Source: an uncultured virus (IMG/VR IMGVR_UViG_3300009152_000002) (lineage: Duplodnaviria; Heunggongvirae; Uroviricota; Caudoviricetes). From it: a DNA stretch of 23,317 nt. The stretch lies in IMG/VR virus record IMGVR_UViG_3300009152_000002, one strand, 5' to 3'. Made by a program: the position numbers and the translations under genes. Shown here in pieces: positions 1 to 17,431 of the stretch (position 1 is its first letter; each line of letters begins with the position of its first letter). The notes beneath the pieces are model-generated. The model worked only from the letters and a program-made list of their open reading frames with translations, made no database searches and was not told where the DNA came from.

Positions 1-1560
1 TTCAGTCAATATTTCTTGAAGTGCTTTGGTCAACACGGGCACTATCTTGGCATTATCTACAGCCCAAGCATCTTGTACCTCTTCGCCATCGTCACCCTTT
101 TTGACTGCATCGGGGACCACCTGATGCAGTTCTTGTGCAATAAAACCATAATTAACCGTATAACCTGTTTCAGTCCAGGTGTAAGAACGAACCTGAATAG
201 AAGAAAGAAGGTTAAGTGCGCTTGGTGCCGGTTGAATTGCGGACTTAAGGCGTTGATCAGATGTTATATTGTACCGAAGTTGACCAGCAGCACGATTGTA
301 GTCGATTGTGCCTCTGCTGGAAAACCCTGCTTCTGTTCCAAAATTAACAAAAACATTGTCCCCAGTTGTTGCAGCATTGAGCAAAGCAATTACATCAGAA
401 CCCGTAGTAGTGGTTTTAAAAAATGCAGCATTAGCTGCTACTTCAACTTGCAACGGACAAGCTACTCCAAGAATGGGTGCATTGGTCCCAACCAAGAGCC
501 GCCCGGAGGAGTCAATAAATACTCTTCCAGTACTATTTGTAGCCAAAGCAACCGTATTAGCCGCACTTAGATAAATTCCATTGGTCGGCACAGTCGCACT
601 AGTTGGAATAAAACTAGCCGCAGTACTAATGCCAGTAGTTGTAACGTTTTGCGAACCAAAATTAGGACTAATTTTTGTACCAACAATAGCTGCACTAGCA
701 TTTACATCAGCATCAAGAATAGTTCCGTCAAGGATCATGGTGCTGGTAACTGTTCCAGTATCACCTGTAGTTACAACAGTTCCTGTTACGGCAGGAAGCG
801 TTAATGTTCCCGATGCGGTTGTAGAAGCAAGAAGCGTTGTAGTCCCTGAAGTGGACCCACTGAACCTAACTCCAGTAGTTCCAAAAGTTGGAAGAGTGGA
901 AAGTACAACAGTAGATCCGGTGCCTGTAGTACTGGCAAGCATTGTTGCCGTAACTGTTCCAGTATCGCCAGACCCTACCAAGGTTCCCGCCAAGGTGGGG
1001 AACGTAACGTTGACTGCCCCGCCTTGAATTAAAGACGTTTGACCAACCTTCGTTACTGCAGTCGGCAGTTGAACGGTTCCAGTTGAAGAACCAATCGTAA
1101 TAGTTTTTGTATTAGCACCTGTACCGATACTGACCGCTCCAGTAGTGCCAGAATCAATAGTAACGATCCCGGTAGTACCAGAAGTCAAAGAAAGATTAGA
1201 AGCAGCCGCAGTTGTCAGGCTGATCGCACCTGAGCCTGTAATATTTCCTACAGAAGTAAGGTTTCCTGTTACGTTTGCACTTCCGTTAAAGGACTGGCCC
1301 CACAGGGTTCTGGAAGTGGTTAACGTAGCAGCAGAGCCGTCAATACTTGTAATGCCCGTAAGCGCTTGCGCAGCCGAAGCGCGATTCAAAGCAATCGCAG
1401 TGGTACCGACGTAAGTAGAGGAACTAGCTAACGGCCTTAAGAAAACATCCGAATCAACACTGGTAAGAGCGTTGATTAGCCGCGTTACGTCATGAGCTAA
1501 CGTATTGGTTCCGTTTGGTAATTCGTATCCTTGGTGGATCGTTACGTTATCAATCGACAT
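1..1560 (-). CDS. Tail fibre/tailspike with C-terminal peptidase S74 intramolecular chaperone domain (3' end truncated by window edge)
   Basis: Absent from the ORF track because it runs off the edge. Segments translated by hand from ATG 1560: MSIDNVTIHQGYELPNG...LTTSRTLWGQSFNGSANVTG (fibre repeat), Thr/Gly/Ser-rich body, then ...NITSDQRLKSAIQP...YGFIAQELHQVVPDAV...IVPVLTKALQEILTE. SDxRLK plus GFIAQE is the S74 signature (from ~261 to the edge). TAAAAT lies 21 nt upstream. Confidence 0.88.
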   Translation of the reverse strand, partial: MSIDNVTIHQGYELPNGTNTLAHDVTRLINALTSVDSDVFLRPLASSSTYVGTTAIALNRASAAQALTGITSIDGSAATLTTSRTLWGQSFNGSANVTGNLTSVGNITGSGAISLTTAAASNLSLTSGTTGIVTIDSGTTGAVSIGTGANTKTITIGSSTGTVQLPTAVTKVGQTSLIQGGAVNVTFPTLAGTLVGSGDTGTVTATMLASTTGTGSTVVLSTLPTFGTTGVRFSGSTSGTTTLLASTTASGTLTLPAVTGTVVTTGDTGTVTSTMILDGTILDADVNASAAIVGTKISPNFGSQNVTTTGISTAASFIPTSATVPTNGIYLSAANTVALATNSTGRVFIDSSGRLLVGTNAPILGVACPLQVEVAANAAFFKTTTTGSDVIALLNAATTGDNVFVNFGTEAGFSSRGTIDYNRAAGQLRYNITSDQRLKSAIQPAPSALNLLSSIQVRSYTWTETGYTVNYGFIAQELHQVVPDAVKKGDDGEEVQDAWAVDNAKIVPVLTKALQEILTE

Positions 1561-8137: not shown

Positions 8138-8578
8138 TCATTCTACACGGATAAGATTCTCAGTGATGATCTCATCCCAATCAACGCGTTTGATTGTTTT
8201 AAGTTGATCAAGGCGTGCAAACTTTTCGCCAGACATTGAAGTTTGTAAATCTTTAATGTCGCGTGCAGTCTTCAAGCCGACACCAGGGAGAGTGTCTGCA
8301 ATCTGCCGAGCACTGGCGGTGTTGATGTTGAGCCTGGTATCAAGAGGAAAAGTTTCTTTATTAGTTGGTTTTGCTGGGTTAACGCCCTCTTGTTTCAACT
8401 GTCCTGTCAAGCGTTCTTCCACTTGCAGTTTTTCAGTTGTAGCGTCCAGCTGGGGGACAAGATCGTCCTCCTCAACATAAAGGACTTCGTCTTGTGAGTC
8501 CACACACATGAAGATTCCTTCTCCGTGCATGGTGACGACTTCGAGGAGTGCTCCTGTTGGCTTGTACCGGTACAGCAT
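8138..8578 (-). CDS. Helix-hairpin-helix (ComEA-like) DNA-binding protein
   Basis: C-terminal RLNINTASARQIADTLPGVGLKTARDI...F..LDQL..IK is the ComEA/HHH_3 pattern. Start moved to ATG 8578 (MLYRYKPTG); the longer ORF crosses a terminator and overlaps 8688-9554. Confidence 0.8.
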   Translation of the reverse strand: MLYRYKPTGALLEVVTMHGEGIFMCVDSQDEVLYVEEDDLVPQLDATTEKLQVEERLTGQLKQEGVNPAKPTNKETFPLDTRLNINTASARQIADTLPGVGLKTARDIKDLQTSMSGEKFARLDQLKTIKRVDWDEIITENLIRVE

Positions 8579-8635
8579 TCGTAAAAGATAGTGACTACCA
8601 GTACAATACCAAGGTTTACCCAAAAGCGCTAGGTC

Positions 8636-8665
8636 AATAAAAAAGCGGGCCACTGGGACCCGCTT
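8636..8665 (-). terminator. Rho-independent terminator after the capsid/decoration genes
   Basis: Minus strand AAGCGGGT-cccagtg-GCCCGCTT followed by TTTT, ~22 nt after the 8688 stop. Confidence 0.8.
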
Positions 8666-8687
8666 AATTACTGATTCCAGAAATGGA

Positions 8688-9554
8688 TCAGGTGTCGTCG
8701 CCGCCCACTTGGGAAGCAAAGTCAATGAAGCCTTGGATATCATTCCAAGACACAGCAGCAGCTGCCTTGACGTAGTTAATACGGGCAAGAATGTAGGCTT
8801 TCTTACCAGCAGCAATATCAGCATCAGAGATATACACGCCGCCGCCAGAAGCGGTGGTAGCAGTGATCGCAGTAACAGTGGTAGCACGGAACGTGGTAGC
8901 CGCAGTAACTTTGTACACCATTGAGTTATCAAAGCCGGTGAGCTTGGCTGCACTGGTGTCAGTGGTAGCAGCAACAACGGAGCTAACGAAAGGAACAAAA
9001 CCGCCGGTAGTACCGCCGCCAGTGGTGGCGCCAGAACCTTGAGCAACTGTGTTGCTAGAAGCTGTCAGCCAGGAGCTAGCAGCTGCGATACCGTTGAGCT
9101 GAGGCGTGGCGGTAACACCAACGGGAAGACCGCTGGAGGTGGGGCCAAACATCAGAATATCTGAAGCGTTAGTGAACTTCAGATCAGCGGTCACAGGGTC
9201 GGCGGGGAAGCCGGGGGCTGGATCAGCCGTGGTACCAGCGGGAAGGTCCTTAGCAACAGCGATAGAAGCGCCGTAAACGTAAGAAGGAGATGCACTGGAG
9301 CCAGGAACAACCAGGGTCGTGATGTTGTCACGAACGCGGTCGTCGGTACGGCGATCAGGAGAAGGGATGATCAGATCCAAGCTCTTGTAGCTAGCAGCGG
9401 CGCCACTTGCATTGCTGATCGGCACATAGGCGATCAGTTCGTAAGCAGCGAAACCAGGCCAGCCAAACACACCTTCAGAGTTGAAGGAGGAAAGGCGATT
9501 GATCTGAGCACCAGGCTGGAGAATCTGGCCAGCACCAGTTTTATAAGTTGCCAT
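8688..9554 (-). CDS. Probable capsid decoration/minor capsid protein
   Basis: 288 aa, Ala/Thr/Ser/Gly-rich, directly after the MCP, GAGGT RBS, same GC-rich codon style as the MCP, followed by a terminator. Confidence 0.55.
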   Translation of the reverse strand: MATYKTGAGQILQPGAQINRLSSFNSEGVFGWPGFAAYELIAYVPISNASGAAASYKSLDLIIPSPDRRTDDRVRDNITTLVVPGSSASPSYVYGASIAVAKDLPAGTTADPAPGFPADPVTADLKFTNASDILMFGPTSSGLPVGVTATPQLNGIAAASSWLTASSNTVAQGSGATTGGGTTGGFVPFVSSVVAATTDTSAAKLTGFDNSMVYKVTAATTFRATTVTAITATTASGGGVYISDADIAAGKKAYILARINYVKAAAAVSWNDIQGFIDFASQVGGDDT

Positions 9555-9565
9555 TGTTAGTTACC

Positions 9566-10708
9566 TCAGGGAGCGATGGTGAAAGCAGAGGTAATGAAGT
9601 CCTTGTTCAGGTTGGCGAAGCCAGCGTACAGTTGCCAAATCAGGATGATAAAGCGGCTGAAGTCATCGTTGTTGTTGATGAGAACCTGAGCATTAGGACC
9701 GCCAATACCGACGCCCACTGCTTGAGGACCGAAGAACAGACCAGGAGGAGTGTTGTAGGTCAAAGAACCATCACCACCGCCAAGATCAACAGTTGCAGTC
9801 TTGTTAGCAAAGTTAGTGGACTCGAAGAAGCGAACGCCTTCAAACACGAAACCTGTAGGCATCACGGGCTCACCAGCAACGAACATGGCTTGGCCGTACT
9901 GACCACCACCGTAGATTGCTTGGTTAGGACCGCCAGCACCCATCAGAGGGTTGCCTTGGCCCATGCCGGGATAACGCGCAACTTCGCGGAAGCCCTGGTC
10001 AGCACGGAGGTCGCGCATGAACGTGGGGTCAGCGATACAACGGTAGTAACCGTCTTGGAACACGGGAACGTTGCGCTTGCGCAGCTGACGAACCACTTCC
10101 AGAAGGTCGGTTTTAACGTTGAACTTATAACGCTCCGAAGCATATTCGGTGGCGGTGTAAGTAGAAACGGTGCCGGAGGTGCGGGAGTGACCGTTGGGGT
10201 AGTAGTAACCACCTTGGGTATCGCCAGACTGACCACGGGTTTCCGATTTGGCCATTTCGTCCAGGAACACCCGGTCACGCCAGCGACGATAGTCGTCAAG
10301 CAGGGTCAGCGAACCGATGGACTGGTGGAACATGTTAAGGTTCCCGGTGTCCAGCAGCAGGCGCTGAGCTGTCATCAGAGTCTCACGAGCGATCTTGAAG
10401 GTGCTCGGAGCGTTGGCGTTGTTCGGGTCAGCAGGGCCGGTGTACTCACGCAGAGACACCAGAACCTTGTCCTTGACAATAGCCCGGCTGCTTGCGGTAC
10501 CGATGGTTTGATCCTGGGTACGCTCGCGGCTGGTCTTGGTACCAGGGTTGCCCCAGAAACGGTACCGGTCAAGTTGCACGGTCTGGCCGGGCTGCTTTGT
10601 AAAGTCGTGAACGACCACAGGTTCTGCGGCCATTTCCACGATGTAAGCCGGGTGGGGGCGATAAAGCTCCGCACCTAACAGCTTAGGAAAATCATTATCA
10701 ATAAACAT
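9566..10708 (-). CDS. Major capsid protein (HK97 fold, resembles N4-gp56-type MCPs)
   Basis: 380 aa. QPGQTVQLDRY (GxTVxF-like E-loop region), YYRCIADPTFMRDLRAD (YxxxxHP-like), GFVFEGVRFFESTN, LFFGPQAVGVG, IWQLYAGFANLN. Position downstream of terminase-portal-scaffold. Confidence 0.85.
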   Translation of the reverse strand: MFIDNDFPKLLGAELYRPHPAYIVEMAAEPVVVHDFTKQPGQTVQLDRYRFWGNPGTKTSRERTQDQTIGTASSRAIVKDKVLVSLREYTGPADPNNANAPSTFKIARETLMTAQRLLLDTGNLNMFHQSIGSLTLLDDYRRWRDRVFLDEMAKSETRGQSGDTQGGYYYPNGHSRTSGTVSTYTATEYASERYKFNVKTDLLEVVRQLRKRNVPVFQDGYYRCIADPTFMRDLRADQGFREVARYPGMGQGNPLMGAGGPNQAIYGGGQYGQAMFVAGEPVMPTGFVFEGVRFFESTNFANKTATVDLGGGDGSLTYNTPPGLFFGPQAVGVGIGGPNAQVLINNNDDFSRFIILIWQLYAGFANLNKDFITSAFTIAP

Positions 10709-10823: not shown

Positions 10824-11096
10824 TTAACTTCCGGGAACGTATCCACCGCCGATGACGTTACCAGGGTTGTAGTGGTTGTTGAGCATCTGGCCCATGCGGT
10901 GATAAGGGTTCACCGTTTGAGTTTGATCTTGCATTGCAATGTTCTGAGCCTGAATTTCAGGTGTCAAACCTTGTGCAGCCATTTGCTGTTGTTGCAGGGC
11001 TCCCAGTTGAGCAGCTTGTTGAGCGGAGTCCGCTGCTTTTTGTTTTGTCCGTGCTTTGGCCTTGGACTTAGCTTGTTTTGCTTTAGATGAATCCAT
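10824..11096 (-). CDS. Small basic/Gln-rich hypothetical protein
   Basis: ATG 11096 (MDSSKAKQAK) lies just after the upstream TGA and is preferred over TTG 11102. Confidence 0.65.
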   Translation of the reverse strand: MDSSKAKQAKSKAKARTKQKAADSAQQAAQLGALQQQQMAAQGLTPEIQAQNIAMQDQTQTVNPYHRMGQMLNNHYNPGNVIGGGYVPGS

Positions 11097-11098
11097 GA

Positions 11099-11566
11099 TC
11101 AACCCCGTGCACGTTGTTGTGCTGCTTTTGCGCCCATTTGTTGAGCGGCTGCAACAGCGTTACCAATTGGAAGTTGCCCGGTAAAAGGCATCATCCCGGT
11201 CATCATGCGCTGATCCATCGTGAGCATGCTGTCTTGCGTAATCTGAGCAGCTTTGGTGTTGTGCGGGGCCATCAGGCCGTACATGGGAAGAGGAGAACCT
11301 TGCTGGTTCAGCATCAGATACCCGTCAGACAGGTTAGCAGGCATCGGTACGGCTTGGTTGTGTGGGGAACCAATCACAGCTGTTGATCCAGCTCCACGTT
11401 GCCTGGCGTATTGGTCGCTATTTCCTGCAACCAGTTGTTCTTGGATATTGCCAGCTCCATAAGTAACAAGGTTGGGTGCCGTCATCGCACCCACGGGGCC
11501 ACCAGCAGTACCAATCTGCGAAAGAAACTGGGAAGCTCGATCACCGACGCTAGCTTTTCCTGCCAT
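11099..11566 (-). CDS. Gln/Met/Gly-rich hypothetical protein, possible internal virion protein
   Basis: 155 aa, ATG start, TAGAAT upstream (11610-11615). Confidence 0.65.
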   Translation of the reverse strand: MAGKASVGDRASQFLSQIGTAGGPVGAMTAPNLVTYGAGNIQEQLVAGNSDQYARQRGAGSTAVIGSPHNQAVPMPANLSDGYLMLNQQGSPLPMYGLMAPHNTKAAQITQDSMLTMDQRMMTGMMPFTGQLPIGNAVAAAQQMGAKAAQQRARG

Positions 11567-12091: not shown

Positions 12092-12829
12092 CTAAACAGC
12101 TTCAGGATCTTCAATAATTTCAGTTTTTTTCAAACGGCTTTTTATTTTTTCTCCGGCCATCCTCAATCCCCTTCCTGCTGCTGTTGCCAAAAGACCCGTT
12201 GCGGCTGGCGCAAGAAGATATGGTACGGCTTGACTGACAGCAAGTTTCCAGTTGCCAGGGGTGCCAGCAGCGCTTAAATACTTCATCCCCCTTCTCGTTG
12301 CTTCTATTTCCGAAGCAATTAGCGGAGCTTGTGCCAAATAAGATAATCCAACAGTATTGGCTAATGCTCCAATATTGCTTTTTTTGCTTGCCGCTAACCC
12401 AATTAAGGCAGGAAGGGCCAAAGGAGAGCTTGCTAGATCTGGTGCATTTTCTTGAATGCTGCTGAAAATTCCTGGCTGCTTGTGAATTGCCCTATGCCCC
12501 AATTCATGTGCCAGAGTAAATAGATGTGCGTTGGGACCATAACTTACATAACCAGAGCCGCCCGGCTCCATGGTGTAAGATCCTAGGTTATTTGGATCAT
12601 TTGATCTGTAAACTGTTGGTTTTTTTAATCCTGAAATATTTTGATGCGCTTGTATTACTTTGTTTTTTAATTCTTGCGAAGAGGGATCCGATAAAGTTAA
12701 GTAATTAGCGTGCTTTGCTTCTTGTTCAAAAGTTCTCCAAACAGCTGTAGGTACTGCTTTTTTGTTAATTAAATGTCCGGCACCTGCTGCTGCTAATGCA
12801 AACAAACTTTGTTTTACAGCATCATTCAC
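12092..12829 (-). CDS. Putative Zn metallopeptidase (HEXXH), possibly membrane-associated
   Basis: LAHELGH, hydrophobic segments, then SEIEATRRG (third-ligand Glu), the arrangement seen in neutral zinc peptidase (Zn_peptidase_2-like) proteins. GTG start; visibly more AT-rich than flanking genes. Confidence 0.65.
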   Translation of the reverse strand: MNDAVKQSLFALAAAGAGHLINKKAVPTAVWRTFEQEAKHANYLTLSDPSSQELKNKVIQAHQNISGLKKPTVYRSNDPNNLGSYTMEPGGSGYVSYGPNAHLFTLAHELGHRAIHKQPGIFSSIQENAPDLASSPLALPALIGLAASKKSNIGALANTVGLSYLAQAPLIASEIEATRRGMKYLSAAGTPGNWKLAVSQAVPYLLAPAATGLLATAAGRGLRMAGEKIKSRLKKTEIIEDPEAV

Positions 12830-12831
12830 AA

Positions 12832-12865
12832 AAAAAGGGGCAGCCTTTGCTACCCCTTATTCTAC
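12832..12865 (-). terminator. Direct repeat copy B: intrinsic terminator after the scaffold gene, abutting a TAGAAT -10 box
   Basis: Minus strand gTAGAAT-AAGGGGTAGC-aaag-GCTGCCCCTT-TTTTT, directly followed by the GTG at 12829. Confidence 0.75.
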
Positions 12866-12911: not shown

Positions 12912-13928
12912 TCACTCCATCACCAAGAGCTTCTGACGGAACACTTCGGGGTTAGACGAAGCTTGGTTCAGATAGCGCCAAGCGTTTGCAGGATCGCGCT
13001 CTGCCAGGGAGCCGAAGCTATTCCAGAAGTCGCCAGGGTTGCCCTGTGCTTGAGGCTGCGGAGGAGCAGGCATCTCAGGACGCTGAGGAGCCACAGGAGG
13101 AGCACCAGCTGGACGTACAAACTGTTGGCCAACTTGCTGACCGTAGACAGGAGCGTCATCGGGAACGGGGTAGGGACCGTTTTCGCCGAAGAACTCGCAG
13201 GTGTAGTCGGCCAGAACATCAGGATCAGTCAGGATGGTCTCATAAGCGCGATGCTCTTGAGACATTTCCTGAAGCAGGTTCACTGCATGGACCAACTGCT
13301 CATTGGTCTGGATGAGAGCATCCTCAATGTTGCAAGCGTAGTTGTTGAGAACAGCCGGAGCATCAGCACCGAAGTAATCAATAACCTGTAGGCTGGCGTC
13401 ACTTACTCCGTTTGCGCGGAGTTGATCCGCCGTTATTTCCTGAGAAGTTTGGGAATAGTTGTTGGAGTAAGCCTGGTTGCTGTTGATCCCAGGCGAATAG
13501 GTCTGCGTCCCCTGGTTGCTGTACTGAGTTGGTGCTACCTGGGAACTGTAGTTGGCGGGAACGGTCTGCTGAGTCCCGTTCGATTGTTGACCCTGGAAGG
13601 GGAATTGGACGGGCGAACTCAGGAGCCCTACCAGGCTGTTGAACGCCGACTTGTAGGGGTTGTCCCCCTGGGGCGCTTGTGGGGCTGCCTGGTACGCTTG
13701 GGGGTACGACGCTGTAGGGTTGAACTGGGGTTGTTGGACCCCCATCTGGGCCTGCATTTGCGGGGCTGGGGCCACCGCTGTTTGGTAGGGCGCCACCCAC
13801 TGCGAAGTTGTTGCCACCGAAGGTGCCTGAGCCGCCGTCTGCTGCATTACTGGAGCCGCGTAGCTGATCGGCTGGGTCTGGGATACTTGGGGTGCCGACT
13901 GGGTCGGCATTACGGTATCGGCCTGCAT
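12912..13928 (-). CDS. Putative capsid scaffolding protein (Gln/Pro-rich N-half, helical C-half)
   Basis: 338 aa, follows the portal; GAGGT RBS at 13934-13938 inside the portal CDS; helical acidic segment IEDALIQTNEQLVHAVNLLQEMSQE. Function from position and composition. Confidence 0.6.
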   Translation of the reverse strand: MQADTVMPTQSAPQVSQTQPISYAAPVMQQTAAQAPSVATTSQWVAPYQTAVAPAPQMQAQMGVQQPQFNPTASYPQAYQAAPQAPQGDNPYKSAFNSLVGLLSSPVQFPFQGQQSNGTQQTVPANYSSQVAPTQYSNQGTQTYSPGINSNQAYSNNYSQTSQEITADQLRANGVSDASLQVIDYFGADAPAVLNNYACNIEDALIQTNEQLVHAVNLLQEMSQEHRAYETILTDPDVLADYTCEFFGENGPYPVPDDAPVYGQQVGQQFVRPAGAPPVAPQRPEMPAPPQPQAQGNPGDFWNSFGSLAERDPANAWRYLNQASSNPEVFRQKLLVME

Positions 13929-15660
13929 AGGTTACCTCTTTTTGTAGGCTTTCGAGAGTTCGGTAAAGGAAGGGGGTGAGATCAAGTCTCGGATCCGCAG
14001 CCATCGGAAGATTAGGTTGCTGCGGATGGGGGGTCCTCATTTCTTGATTTACGAGATCAATAAATGTGGCCATTGCCCTCTGTACTTCTCCCACCATCCG
14101 GAACGGGAATCCGCCGAGCATGCCAGCGACTTCGTCGTCCGTTTTTGAAGGGAATAAATACTTCAGTGCTTCTATGCTATCAACACCTAACTCCTGTAGG
14201 TTTCGAGTAAAGATCGATTGGTTAAGTTTGTCCTGTGTTGTGTCTTCATAAACAGGTCCCATCCAGCGCCAGCAAACCGTTCTATCCCCATCAGGAGCTA
14301 ATCCAAGAACACCGGGGGGGATCTCTTTTGTTTCAACTGCAGTATCAATTGCTTTCTGAAGTTTCTTTTCATATACTGCTTTTTGTTTTTCGTATTTAGC
14401 TTGTAAAGCTTCGTCACTAAGATCGGCAGGAGGATCAGGAAATTTAATTCCGGAAGCGTAAGCGAGCGACTTACGGAAAATCTGCTCCTCCTGGAAAACC
14501 ATTAACTCAAGGCACTTACAAACACCATAGGTATAAAGTTGTAAGCACTTTTTCTTGGCCGTTGCACTTACCCGTCCATAAGCTGATTTAATCTCCGTAG
14601 CGGTTACATTGGTAATACTAAGATCGTCGATGCCGCCTAAAGCAAGCCGGATCTCACTACGAAGCTGTTCGGCATACCGTGCCTGGTCAGAACTGATCGC
14701 ATTAGGTGTAATAAAACCAACACGATCTGATGGCTCCAGGTTGGCAATAACCCGTGGAACACGCATGCCACTACCTGGTTTACCGTAATAACCAGGATGC
14801 TGACGAGTTACGTTATCAGATTTATATGTAGAGCTGGAAAGACTGAACTCTGATTGGAAGCCAGACTGACTGGAAATACTAGGGCGTTGGGAAACATCAC
14901 CATCTGTTTTCTCAATAATGTCTTGCTTCGGCCTAGAAGACAGAAGAGTTGGGTTACCAAAGAACGAAAGGTTTGCCCTGATGTTTTTAACCATCTCATC
15001 ATGAGCGATGATTTGGTTAGACAACCATTCAAACTCACCATGCCCGTCAGTACCAAAAGCATCGGGATTATTAAAAACTTCAACACACGGAATAAACTCC
15101 ATGGTGTTGACAGTTGTGGTGGTATTTCCTAACGTGGCGTACTCAATTTCAGTGTCAAATGATAATTCTTGTTCGCTGTGACATTCTTGAATTTCAGTGG
15201 CGGTAATCCGCAACCGCATGTAGCGCTTGTCAGTTGAAAGGCCGATGCCGCCAAACCCACGGCTAGATTTGACCTTGTATGGATAAATAATGATAACTTC
15301 TTCCAGATCACCCTCTGGCGTGTAGTAGGTTCGGTACGCGTCTTTGTCGAACCAGTACAGGCGGTACGTTTTCTTGGTGGGACGAATATAGAAAAGACCT
15401 TTGCCGTATGCCAAAAACCGATCCCACATGGAATCAAGCCGGGCGTCTAGCTTGTTAAATTTGATGACTTGTTGAATAAAGTCAAACCGTTGAGTGCCAA
15501 AGTTGTCCTGATGCGGATAGAACTCGACGCCCTGACGGATGCCGAACATCTTCATCTGAGAAAGATGAGCGTTCAACAGCATGGTATCGGCGCCACCGTC
15601 CGAATCCCTGTTGACGATTGACCGGATGAAATCCTCTAGGACTGTTTTGTTTTCGGACAT
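13399..15660 (-). CDS. Portal protein with long Gly/Pro/Ser-rich C-terminal tail
   Basis: 753 aa after terminase. Portal-like segments: FLAYGKGLFYI, MEFIPCVEVFNNP..GxxEFE, NLSFFGNP, TATEIK. The last ~176 codons overlap the scaffold gene. Confidence 0.8.
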   Translation of the reverse strand: MSENKTVLEDFIRSIVNRDSDGGADTMLLNAHLSQMKMFGIRQGVEFYPHQDNFGTQRFDFIQQVIKFNKLDARLDSMWDRFLAYGKGLFYIRPTKKTYRLYWFDKDAYRTYYTPEGDLEEVIIIYPYKVKSSRGFGGIGLSTDKRYMRLRITATEIQECHSEQELSFDTEIEYATLGNTTTTVNTMEFIPCVEVFNNPDAFGTDGHGEFEWLSNQIIAHDEMVKNIRANLSFFGNPTLLSSRPKQDIIEKTDGDVSQRPSISSQSGFQSEFSLSSSTYKSDNVTRQHPGYYGKPGSGMRVPRVIANLEPSDRVGFITPNAISSDQARYAEQLRSEIRLALGGIDDLSITNVTATEIKSAYGRVSATAKKKCLQLYTYGVCKCLELMVFQEEQIFRKSLAYASGIKFPDPPADLSDEALQAKYEKQKAVYEKKLQKAIDTAVETKEIPPGVLGLAPDGDRTVCWRWMGPVYEDTTQDKLNQSIFTRNLQELGVDSIEALKYLFPSKTDDEVAGMLGGFPFRMVGEVQRAMATFIDLVNQEMRTPHPQQPNLPMAADPRLDLTPFLYRTLESLQKEVTYAGRYRNADPVGTPSIPDPADQLRGSSNAADGGSGTFGGNNFAVGGALPNSGGPSPANAGPDGGPTTPVQPYSVVPPSVPGSPTSAPGGQPLQVGVQQPGRAPEFARPIPLPGSTIERDSADRSRQLQFPGSTNSVQQPGDADLFAWDQQQPGLLQQLFPNFSGNNGGSTPRKRSK

Positions 15661-15907: not shown

Positions 15908-17431
15908 CTAATATTCCAACTCAAGCTTACCCCTGGTCATTAACCCGTTGCAGAGCCAAATTAAGGCGTCGACGCAGTCGTCGTGAGAGCTTACGCCAAA
16001 GTTAATGATTTCATCAGTCAGGGCCTGAAACTTTCGATATTTGTTAAACACGAGTTTTCGCTGTTCAAACAGGCCCATAATCCCCCTGAAGCGTGCAACC
16101 TTGTCCCCACGGAACCCTTTGACCGCATGCCAGTTGATATTGTAAAGTCCATGGTCACCAAGGCAGATCCGTTTGAAGTCCGCTTCTAGGGAAGCTTGAT
16201 AGGCGACCGCTTCAGACCAGACATCAATACTACTGGCACCAGCGTGGTACTGGTTTCCGTCTTTGTGAACGATTCCCCACTCGTAACACATCTCCATTAA
16301 AGACTCTAATTTCTCCAGGTTTCCCATGATCCGGATGCGTTTGCAATCAATGATGTGGATCTTGTCTCCAACACGTCCACCAAGGACCATAACTGTGTAA
16401 TCGTTACGTTCCCTGACGCCAGCAGAAAGGTCAACACCAATTCCTAAACAATCAAATTCAGTGGAAATTTGACCTTTGACAATCAAATCTGGTGAGATCG
16501 ATAGCTCACTGGTTTGAACAATTTGGTTTTGATACTGAAAACTGAAACTGATAGGAGCTTGACGACGGCGATCTTGGAGATATTCCAAAGACCACATGTC
16601 AGGCCAGTAAGAAATTTCATCTCCGATAGTGTCAACAGTGATTGCGGATTGAACGATTTGAACCCAGTCATTTACAGGTGTAAAGGTAGTGCTGTGAATG
16701 TCGTCGTGACGAAACCTAGTACCAAGACAGATGGCCCTACCGCCTTCAAACATAGTAGGAACAATAACTGAGTTCCAGTTATCTTCCATCATTTGTCGGA
16801 TGTCACGGTTTTTAATATCGTCAGCACTCTTTACAACGTCATCCAAAATACAAAGGTGTGAACGTTTGGAGGTCACTGCACCTTTAAGACCTGCACAGCA
16901 GATGGTAAATTCTTCTTCACCAGTGGATTTAATTCCTGCAAACTTCCAGTCAATACTCCAATATTCATTGGAGTTGATACCTTTGGCAATCTTCACCATT
17001 GGGAAGATTTCTCTATAAATTTTACTTTCTTCAATAATTCGTTTGATTGCAGCGCTCTTGGGCCGCGCAACATCAACCGTGTAAGAAATATAAAGAATTT
17101 TTAGCGGTTTTTTATGGAGTGCGTGTACTCCAATTGACCAAGCTGTGTATAAACCAAGTACTGTTGATTTTGCTGATCCTCGTGGCGCCAGGATGTCGAT
17201 ATTGGGGCCGCCAATGCCAACTAAACATTCAGTGTTGTCACCGGTACAAAGGTACCGATGCCACTCTTTATGGTGAGCAGCAGGAGGCTTATCTCCAACA
17301 ACATCGCAAAAATAAGCGAAGTCAGTACGAGCCCTTTCAATGTCAATGTTGGAAGTTTTTTTAACAACCTGTTGCTTTGCTGCAGCACGAGCGGTTCTGC
17401 GGTAAACGGAATAAAGACTGGTCCCTGCCAT
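15908..17431 (-). CDS. terL: Terminase large subunit
   Basis: Walker A APRGSAKST, Walker B LCILDD, coupling region LGTRF, nuclease motifs GIGVDLS, NDYTV and HDDCVDAL. Confidence 0.95.
   Translation of the reverse strand: MAGTSLYSVYRRTARAAAKQQVVKKTSNIDIERARTDFAYFCDVVGDKPPAAHHKEWHRYLCTGDNTECLVGIGGPNIDILAPRGSAKSTVLGLYTAWSIGVHALHKKPLKILYISYTVDVARPKSAAIKRIIEESKIYREIFPMVKIAKGINSNEYWSIDWKFAGIKSTGEEEFTICCAGLKGAVTSKRSHLCILDDVVKSADDIKNRDIRQMMEDNWNSVIVPTMFEGGRAICLGTRFRHDDIHSTTFTPVNDWVQIVQSAITVDTIGDEISYWPDMWSLEYLQDRRRQAPISFSFQYQNQIVQTSELSISPDLIVKGQISTEFDCLGIGVDLSAGVRERNDYTVMVLGGRVGDKIHIIDCKRIRIMGNLEKLESLMEMCYEWGIVHKDGNQYHAGASSIDVWSEAVAYQASLEADFKRICLGDHGLYNINWHAVKGFRGDKVARFRGIMGLFEQRKLVFNKYRKFQALTDEIINFGVSSHDDCVDALIWLCNGLMTRGKLELEY

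Follow-up and report, generated by a model that had tools for sequence, protein, structure and literature searches.

Conserved dual reading frames in a 530-nucleotide overlap between the portal gene and the gene in scaffold position of an uncultured tailed phage

Results

Overlap of the portal gene and ORF B

The 23,317-nucleotide (nt) stretch of DNA of an uncultured tailed phage, the freshwater cyanophage IMGVR_UViG_3300009152_000002, is referred to here as the window. On its minus strand it carries the gene of a phage portal protein and an open reading frame, named ORF B, that lies in the position of a scaffold gene. The last 530 nt of the portal gene are at the same time the first 530 nt of ORF B, which is read in the +1 frame relative to the portal (Table 1). 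Very probably, two separate proteins are encoded by these same nucleotides, with both readings under selection. The conservation of the two open frames and the selection on both of them strongly support real dual coding over an open frame that arose by chance or through faulty assembly. An earlier sequence-only reading of the window had reported the overlap, a GAGGT element within the portal codons for K-E-V-T-Y and a TAA that closes the +1 frame ahead of the ORF B start, and its coordinates were borne out, with a single CCT codon between the TAA and the ATG.

ORF B continues for 487 nt past the portal stop, and the locus is therefore not of the Rz/Rz1 type, in which the second gene is embedded wholly inside the first. 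The guanine plus cytosine content is 0.598 in the overlap and 0.458 in the portal body.

Conservation of both open frames

The openness expected by chance was estimated by keeping the residues of one protein constant and redrawing the synonymous codons 20,000 times from the codon usage of the window. Redraws that preserved the portal residues left the +1 frame of ORF B open in 36% of cases. Those that preserved the ORF B residues never left the portal frame open (0 of 20,000) and gave it a mean of 10 stops. Distinct overlap sequences numbered 63 in the clade of the window and 70 in the clade of the Synechococcus phage S-EIVl (KJ410740), S-EIVl itself being part of both sets, and neither frame contained a stop in any of them (63 of 63 and 70 of 70). 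The third sense frame always had 3–12 stops and was open in 0/63 and 0/70, and the three antisense frames were open in 0, 0 and 15 of the 63 and in 0, 0 and 5 of the 70 sequences. Across relatives, the openness of both frames is far beyond chance. If only the ORF B frame were functional, and the portal tail were tolerated junk read-through kept open by its composition, about 10 portal stops would be predicted, yet none was found in the 133 distinct sequences.

The same was seen in every locus that covers the overlap completely. In the clade of the window (73–99% identity) 82 sequences were examined, of which 4 stop short of the junction and 7 are truncated within it; both frames were open in 71 of 71 whole-overlap loci, and the overlaps measured 512–563 nt. 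The S-EIVl clade (81 examined, 1 without the region, 3 cut) had both frames open in 77 of 77 loci, with overlaps of 539–692 nt. An alignment-based scan, some contigs of which duplicate the S-EIVl-clade scan, added 71 of 71 loci with both frames open and overlaps of 467–638 nt (78 examined, 7 cut); 11 of these loci form a third clade with 43–46% portal identity to both other clades. Contigs binned in metagenome-assembled genomes (MAGs) or single-amplified genomes (SAGs) gave 12 of 12 (16 examined, 4 cut), with overlaps of 482–602 nt among the 11 loci that have an ATG start. The MAG contig L247 has a 602-nt overlap at a portal identity of 34–36%. In the clade of L240-242, at ∼30% portal identity, both frames were open in 3 of 3 loci over an overlap of 179 nt.

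Two interrupted copies were noted. Locus L009, of the window's clade, has a single in-frame stop at ∼5425, which affects only the non-overlapped helical part of ORF B, and in L258 the portal frame is broken upstream at ∼3234, leaving an open stretch of 544 codons only; both could be sequencing errors or defective copies. The MAGs that contain contigs of the family belong to many taxa that are not related to one another, Methanobacteriota and Bacteroidetes among them, and the MAG of L247 is labelled Leptolyngbya; this scatter probably reflects mis-binning. A marine host is hinted at by L251, from a SAG labelled uncultured Prochlorococcus, in which the portal has 72% identity and the overlap measures 521 nt.

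S-EIVl was the sole named phage relative found. Its portal (AHV82224, 767 aa) is 50.7% identical to that of the window, and at the same locus both frames are open over 554 nt, with the ORF B ATG one codon after the +1 stop. The record differs in its annotation: both genes are called hypothetical, only the last 133 of the ∼325 ORF B residues are annotated (AHV82225, 133 aa; 59863..60264), and the overlap is not annotated.

The sequence-only reading had named an indel or substitution error near 13930 as something to exclude. An assembly or sequencing error, be it an indel there or one in the tail, is refuted by the presence of the same architecture in the cultured S-EIVl and in >200 contigs, which come from many metagenomes independent of one another, and its probability is negligible. 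An independent contig from another DNA run crosses 13390-14203 without gaps, and with it the junction without indels. Contigs from two RNA-library runs of different studies also cross the overlap without gaps or indels; these are 90–95% relatives and possibly DNA-derived, and since they show neither strand nor ends they were not counted as evidence of expression.

Selection on each frame

For the window's clade, a tree of 56 distinct sequences was used to count nucleotide changes by parsimony; each change was classed by its effect in each frame, and the counts were scaled to the rates at 4-fold sites in the flanks. Changes that alter both proteins occurred at 0.139 of neutral (355 changes), those that alter only the portal at 0.416 (554) and those that alter only ORF B at 0.267 (407), while doubly synonymous changes occurred at 1.30 (48). 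A replicate with 61 distinct sequences of the S-EIVl clade gave 0.207, 0.582, 0.327 and 1.37 in the same order, and its controls 1.35 and 0.20. When a fake +1 frame was laid over the portal body as a control, portal-synonymous changes ran at 1.34 whatever their effect in the fake frame, and portal-altering changes ran at 0.125 if they were silent in the fake frame and at 0.122 if they altered both. The mirror control, a fake portal-like frame in the ORF B body, gave 1.10 vs 0.14.

Contrasts between matched classes inside the overlap, which are independent of the local neutral rate and were bootstrapped over codon columns, confirmed an effect of each frame. The portal effect was 0.52 (0.40–0.67) and 0.32 (0.21–0.58), with control values of 1.42 and 1.12; the ORF B effect was 0.33 (0.26–0.41) and 0.21 (0.13–0.38), with control values of 0.98 and 0.67. 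Third codon positions accumulated ∼10 changes per site in both flanks (10.1 in the portal frame), and 3.0 in the portal frame and 4.1–4.2 in the ORF B frame within the overlap, where portal codon positions 1, 2 and 3 had 4.1, 1.5 and 3.0 changes per site. Purifying selection acts on each frame separately. The comparison of homologous loci that the sequence-only reading had proposed as a check thus found both frames open and synonymous variation suppressed.

The constraint is a mosaic, in which the constrained residues of either protein face a stretch of the other protein that is disordered and tolerates change. Over the first 15 shared codons, both frames are nearly frozen (0.024 and 0.11). 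The ORF B frame rules portal windows 609-623 (portal-only 0.59 vs ORF B-only 0.07) and 669-683 (0.53 vs 0.12), the latter holding the predicted ORF B helix, while window 714-728 is ruled by the portal frame (0.14 vs 0.80).

These data bear on the two readings in which a single frame is functional. For the one in which the portal tail is junk, it counts that portal-only changes are the least constrained (0.42–0.58) and near neutral in some windows (0.59–0.85), that the tail is predicted to be disordered and that tails of 18–47 residues occur in a deep portal group (though its member P0310 has 147). Yet changes that alter the portal are 2- to 3-fold rarer than those of the matched classes, with no such depletion in the control, window 714-728 is dominated by the portal, and two motifs and the basic end of the tail persist among distant portals (see below), and we consider this reading very unlikely. 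The converse, that only the portal frame is functional, that ORF B truly starts near the portal stop and that the +1 frame is open owing to the G/P/S-rich tail, agrees with the share of chance redraws in which that frame was open, with the 133-aa gene of the S-EIVl record and with the disorder of ORF B residues 1-89. It is nonetheless highly improbable: portal-synonymous changes that alter ORF B occurred at 0.27–0.33 of neutral vs 1.34–1.35 in the control, changes at portal third positions fell from 10.1 to 3.0 per site, the position of the ATG is conserved down to 30% portal identity and a helix motif of ORF B across five clades, and database gene callers give full-length ORF B proteins of ∼330–340 aa.

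The synonymous rate also dips upstream of the overlap, at 13930-14220 (portal residues 481-577): relative to the neutral expectation it was 1.0–1.5 over residues 1-480, 0.58 over 481-570 and 0.27 over 571-577. The S-EIVl clade has the same dip (0.55 vs 1.22). A conserved antisense ORF was considered as its cause and rejected, as the boundaries of such frames vary between loci. The dip region contained no conserved RNA structure (no pair covaries) and no sigma-70-like promoter, and its 4-fold sites were no more alike between clades than elsewhere. Because of this dip, the internal contrasts carry more weight than the absolute ratios.

The ORF B start

The ORF B ATG lies at the homologous Tyr-Gly/Ala junction of the portal in the window's clade, the S-EIVl clade, the third clade and the L240-242 clade at ∼30% identity. 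Three exceptions were found. In L194 the start is 5 codons on, at another Tyr-Glu junction, in L247 it is 3 codons on, at an Asp-Gly junction, and L252 has no ATG at the usual site and a GTG one codon on, with the frame still open. In L240-242 and in most loci of the two large clades, a single codon separates the ATG from a preceding +1 stop. As for individual loci, the nearest +1 stop is 8 codons upstream in L057 and L070 and 36 codons upstream in L059, L061 and L062, with the first ATG at the usual place. The S-EIVl clade has an AAGGAG 7 nt upstream of its ORF B ATG.

No conserved RNA structure was detected around the start: there were no covarying pairs, the consensus energy was -4 kcal/mol, and the fold energies of the region in four clades did not differ from those of shuffled sequences (z -0.97 to +0.82).

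In addition to the two proteins, a minor portal-ORF B fusion could arise by +1 ribosomal frameshifting in the overlap and tether ORF B to the portal. In favour of this, ORF B is shifted by +1 relative to the portal with both frames open for 530 nt, any +1 slip after 13932 would yield a fusion, and the first 15 overlapped codons are nearly frozen in both frames. No slippery or stall motif was identified, although no systematic search was made, and the start region lacks conserved RNA structure and has fold energies like those of shuffles. The conserved ATG, the Shine-Dalgarno-like element upstream of it and the +1 stop that precedes it by one codon agree with independent initiation, and there is little probability that such a fusion is made.

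Several points weigh against dual coding as set out here. In a single genome, the open +1 frame is little beyond chance. The constraint on the portal frame is uneven, with portal-only rates of 0.59–0.85 in some windows and of up to 0.78 in the S-EIVl clade, and because it is weak in places, parts of the portal tail may be kept open merely to reach the C-terminal motifs. The counts are approximate, being obtained by parsimony on a tree of the portal body in metagenomic lineages that recombine, and the local neutral rate is uncertain, as the upstream synonymous dip is unexplained. The start signal is uneven as well: the third clade and L240-242 have a purine-rich stretch only, in which a Shine-Dalgarno-like element is weak or absent. 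Finally, we infer from evidence at the level of sequence that both products are actually made, with independent initiation at the ORF B ATG.

The portal protein and its tail

The portal ORF matches phrog_20475 (E 2.6e-207) over residues 5-744, and the named portal phrogs were matched only weakly. A sequence-profile search against the Protein Data Bank (PDB) gave no match, and a fold search was needed instead. The AlphaFold model, built from 44 diverse homologues, had a mean predicted local distance difference test (pLDDT) score of 71, with residues 1-580 mostly at 80–90 and values <50 at residues 591-678, 697-730 and 740-753. With this model, the top Foldseek matches in the PDB were all phage portals (E down to 3e-10, probability 1.0), among them those of SaPI1/80alpha, LME-1, T7, Carin1 and the cyanophage P-SCSP1u. 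Based on these fold matches and on the position next to TerL in the head module, the 753-aa protein is a phage portal, with a predicted folded body (1-580) and a predicted disordered, G/P/S-rich and basic-ended tail of ∼175 residues.

Within the otherwise disordered tail, residues 681-690 form a block with a pLDDT of 75. P687 is conserved in ≥90% of 44 portals, down to 25% identity, and the PIPLPGSTI motif is also present in the tails of P0249, P0257, P0300, P0313 and L247. In portals at 34–41% identity, a P-x-P-G-S/T-T motif and an LFP[NT]F-like motif (LFP-x-F) followed by a basic end recur, which speaks against a tail without function.

The ORF B protein

ORF B has 1057 homologues at E≤1e-3, mostly of 326–349 aa and full length. 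Its model is of low confidence (mean pLDDT 52, predicted template modelling score 0.23). Residues 1-89 and 105-163 are Q/P/A-rich, have a pLDDT <50 and are predicted to be disordered. Helices are predicted at residues 91-104 (a short one), in a helical domain at 167-247 and, as three C-terminal helices, at 298-337. Both products are thus of low complexity in the overlap, with pLDDT <50 over most of both segments, and the portal stop, at about residue 177 of ORF B, falls near the start of its ordered-looking half, as the letters alone had suggested. The core of the short helix, N-P-W/Y-x-x-A-F, is kept in five clades, and N90, P91 and A95 are invariant or nearly so in 21 sequences from these clades.

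No match to ORF B was found in Pfam, PHROG, the PDB profiles or the ESM Atlas, and the single significant match in BFVD was an unnamed 133-aa protein with 38% identity. The proposal that ORF B is the scaffold was left without a sequence or fold match to known scaffolding proteins in any of these five resources. ORF B does sit between the portal and major capsid genes, where a scaffold gene is located, and by this position and the helical prediction alone it may be guessed to be scaffold-like. A prediction of the complex of portal residues 1-580 with ORF B residues 75-125 scored 0.00 in two runs and was uninformative on binding.

Age and origin of the overlap

A search of 1.84 billion representatives yielded 301 portal relatives. 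In 44 aligned portals the tail after the conserved Tyr measures 18 to 212 residues; tails of <70 residues are confined to one deep group (3 of its 4 members, with 18–47 residues, P0310 being the fourth) and to one nested sequence. In the DNA of L240-242, which belong to the deep group, the ORF B ATG is formed by the homologous Tyr-Gly codons and again follows a +1 stop at a distance of one codon. Since this ATG is at homologous codons at ∼30% identity, the embedded start of ORF B is old, and the portal tail is variable in length.

Codon usage fits poorly in the overlap for both frames (-0.15 for the portal vs -0.19 for ORF B in the window's clade, -0.11 vs -0.14 in the S-EIVl clade). The fit of the portal frame was slightly better in 39 of 56 and in 50 of 65 loci, which are not independent of one another. 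The midpoint-rooted tree of the 44 portals was ambiguous as to the polarity of short and long tails. The sequence-only reading had inferred overprinting that links two interacting assembly proteins; the dual coding in this inference is upheld by conservation and selection, while codon usage and the tree do not tell which frame is the newer. Searches of viral-contig DNA with the distant portals P0257, P0313, P0306 and P0253 gave no match, and among named phages only S-EIVl was found.

Features and neighbouring genes

The coordinates of the locus and of its surroundings are collected in Table 1.

Table 1. Features of the portal-ORF B locus and its neighbourhood, in positions of the window.
Feature	Position	Strand	Remarks
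Portal gene	13399..15660	-	753 aa; TGA stop at 13399-13401
ORF B	12912..13928	-	338 aa; gene in scaffold position; putative function
Dual-coding stretch	13399..13928	-	530 nt; portal residues 578-753 (frame 0) and ORF B residues 1-177 (frame +1)
ORF B start ATG	13926..13928	-	Formed by the AT of the portal Tyr578 codon (TAT) and the G that opens the Ala codon after it
Shine-Dalgarno-like GAGGT	13934..13938	-	5 nt upstream of the ORF B ATG; within the portal K-E-V-T-Y codons (E-V)
TAA in the +1 frame	13932..13934	-	One codon (CCT) before the ORF B ATG
ORF B residues 90-104 (NPYKSAFNSLVGLLS)	13617..13661	-	Sole predicted helix in the overlapped half of ORF B; ORF B frame dominates constraint
Portal tail motif PIPLPGSTI, residues 685-693	13582..13608	-	Higher-confidence island in the disordered tail
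Portal tail residues 714-739, with PGLLQQLFPNF	13444..13521	-	Portal frame dominates constraint
Terminator-like hairpin	12835..12858	-	54 nt past the ORF B stop; 10-pair stem with 6 GC pairs, then TTTTTGTG (T-run); consensus match only
TerL	15908-17431		PF17289, phrog_38; portal gene just downstream
Major head protein	9566-10708	-	phrog_1357; four small ORFs separate ORF B from the capsid gene

A 245-aa ORF follows ORF B (12092-12829, minus strand). It contains an H-E-x-x-H motif and has sub-threshold similarity to Peptidase_M78 (E 0.023) and Zn_peptidase_2 (E 0.057), and may be a candidate head-maturation protease. Directly upstream of the major head protein gene lies a 92-aa, Q/A/K-rich ORF without a family match (10824-11102, minus strand), which is, by position, an alternative candidate for the scaffolding protein. 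An open frame of 376 codons on the plus strand (9548-10678) runs antisense to nearly all of the major head protein gene. A second same-strand overlap listed in the window, of 359 nt, involves the ORFs 8138-9046 and 8688-9554 (both minus strand). The first ∼140 residues of its downstream ORF, from a TTG start, resemble an out-of-frame reading of the A/T/G-rich end of the upstream gene, and the true start is probably further down.

Discussion

We propose that ribosomes that start at the portal ATG would read on in frame 0 and add a disordered, basic-ended tail of ∼175 residues to the portal body. Other ribosomes would start independently at the internal ATG within the conserved Tyr codon of the portal, after the Shine-Dalgarno-like GAGGT, and would read the +1 frame into the disordered N-terminal half of ORF B, the helical half of which lies beyond the portal stop. 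The sharing of nucleotides would work because both segments are disordered and carry few short conserved motifs, which are interleaved. We infer a role of ORF B in head assembly.

The overlap might go beyond tolerated compaction and be a working assembly device, in which the tail of the portal and the arm of ORF B jointly nucleate the prohead; it could, for example, place ORF B on the portal vertex or fix the relative output of the two proteins. Such a device would draw on the interleaved motifs and on an ORF B start that is embedded in the final conserved motif of the portal body and kept to ∼30% identity, but we regard it as rather unlikely.

In Rz/Rz1 of phage lambda and other embedded or overlapped spanin pairs, one piece of DNA likewise encodes two functional proteins, the second of them read in the +1 frame, and these serve one process; Rz1 is short and lies wholly inside Rz. 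In contrast, the overlap described here is terminal, joining the 3' end of one gene to the 5' end of the next; it measures 0.5–0.7 kb, belongs to the head module and encodes two disordered segments. Lambda C/Nu3 and Mu I/Z are in-frame nested head-assembly genes, with an internal start in the upstream head gene and shared residues. They are likewise head genes that share coding DNA, whereas here the frames differ and no residues are shared. Lambda G/GT and T7 10A/10B are products of programmed ribosomal frameshifts. With the overprinted or overlapping genes of viruses in general (reviews PMC8227390, PMC7017920), the locus shares the coding of two proteins under adaptive conflict, with both frames selected and synonymous change suppressed. 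Most well-studied cases are from small RNA or single-stranded DNA viruses. The present case differs in that it is found in a double-stranded DNA tailed phage, the nearest cultured relative of which has a 79-kb genome, and in that it links two core head-module genes and is kept to ∼30–35% portal identity.

In the passages covered here, a preprint about a related marine lineage refers only to the portal, capsid and terminase genes, and no description of the portal/ORF B overlap was found in a search of the mostly open-access literature. The locus is a new example of a known arrangement, the out-of-frame overlapping gene pair, and stands out by its length (0.5–0.7 kb, kept to ∼34% portal identity), its age and its position between core head genes. 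Genome compression is a weak explanation for the overlap, since the genome of the nearest cultured relative is 79 kb long.

The finding matters for annotation. Where a gene caller does not allow long overlaps, ORF B is truncated to a stub, as in S-EIVl, where 133 of ∼325 residues were retained. The same error is probably present in many metagenomic genomes of this cyanophage lineage, which is widespread in freshwater and marine settings and of which 553 relatives were matched in one scan and at least 593 in the other. The locus illustrates how one stretch of DNA can serve two disordered segments whose constrained motifs are interleaved. As S-EIVl is in culture, the expression and function of both frames, and the role of the 175-residue portal tail, are experimentally accessible.

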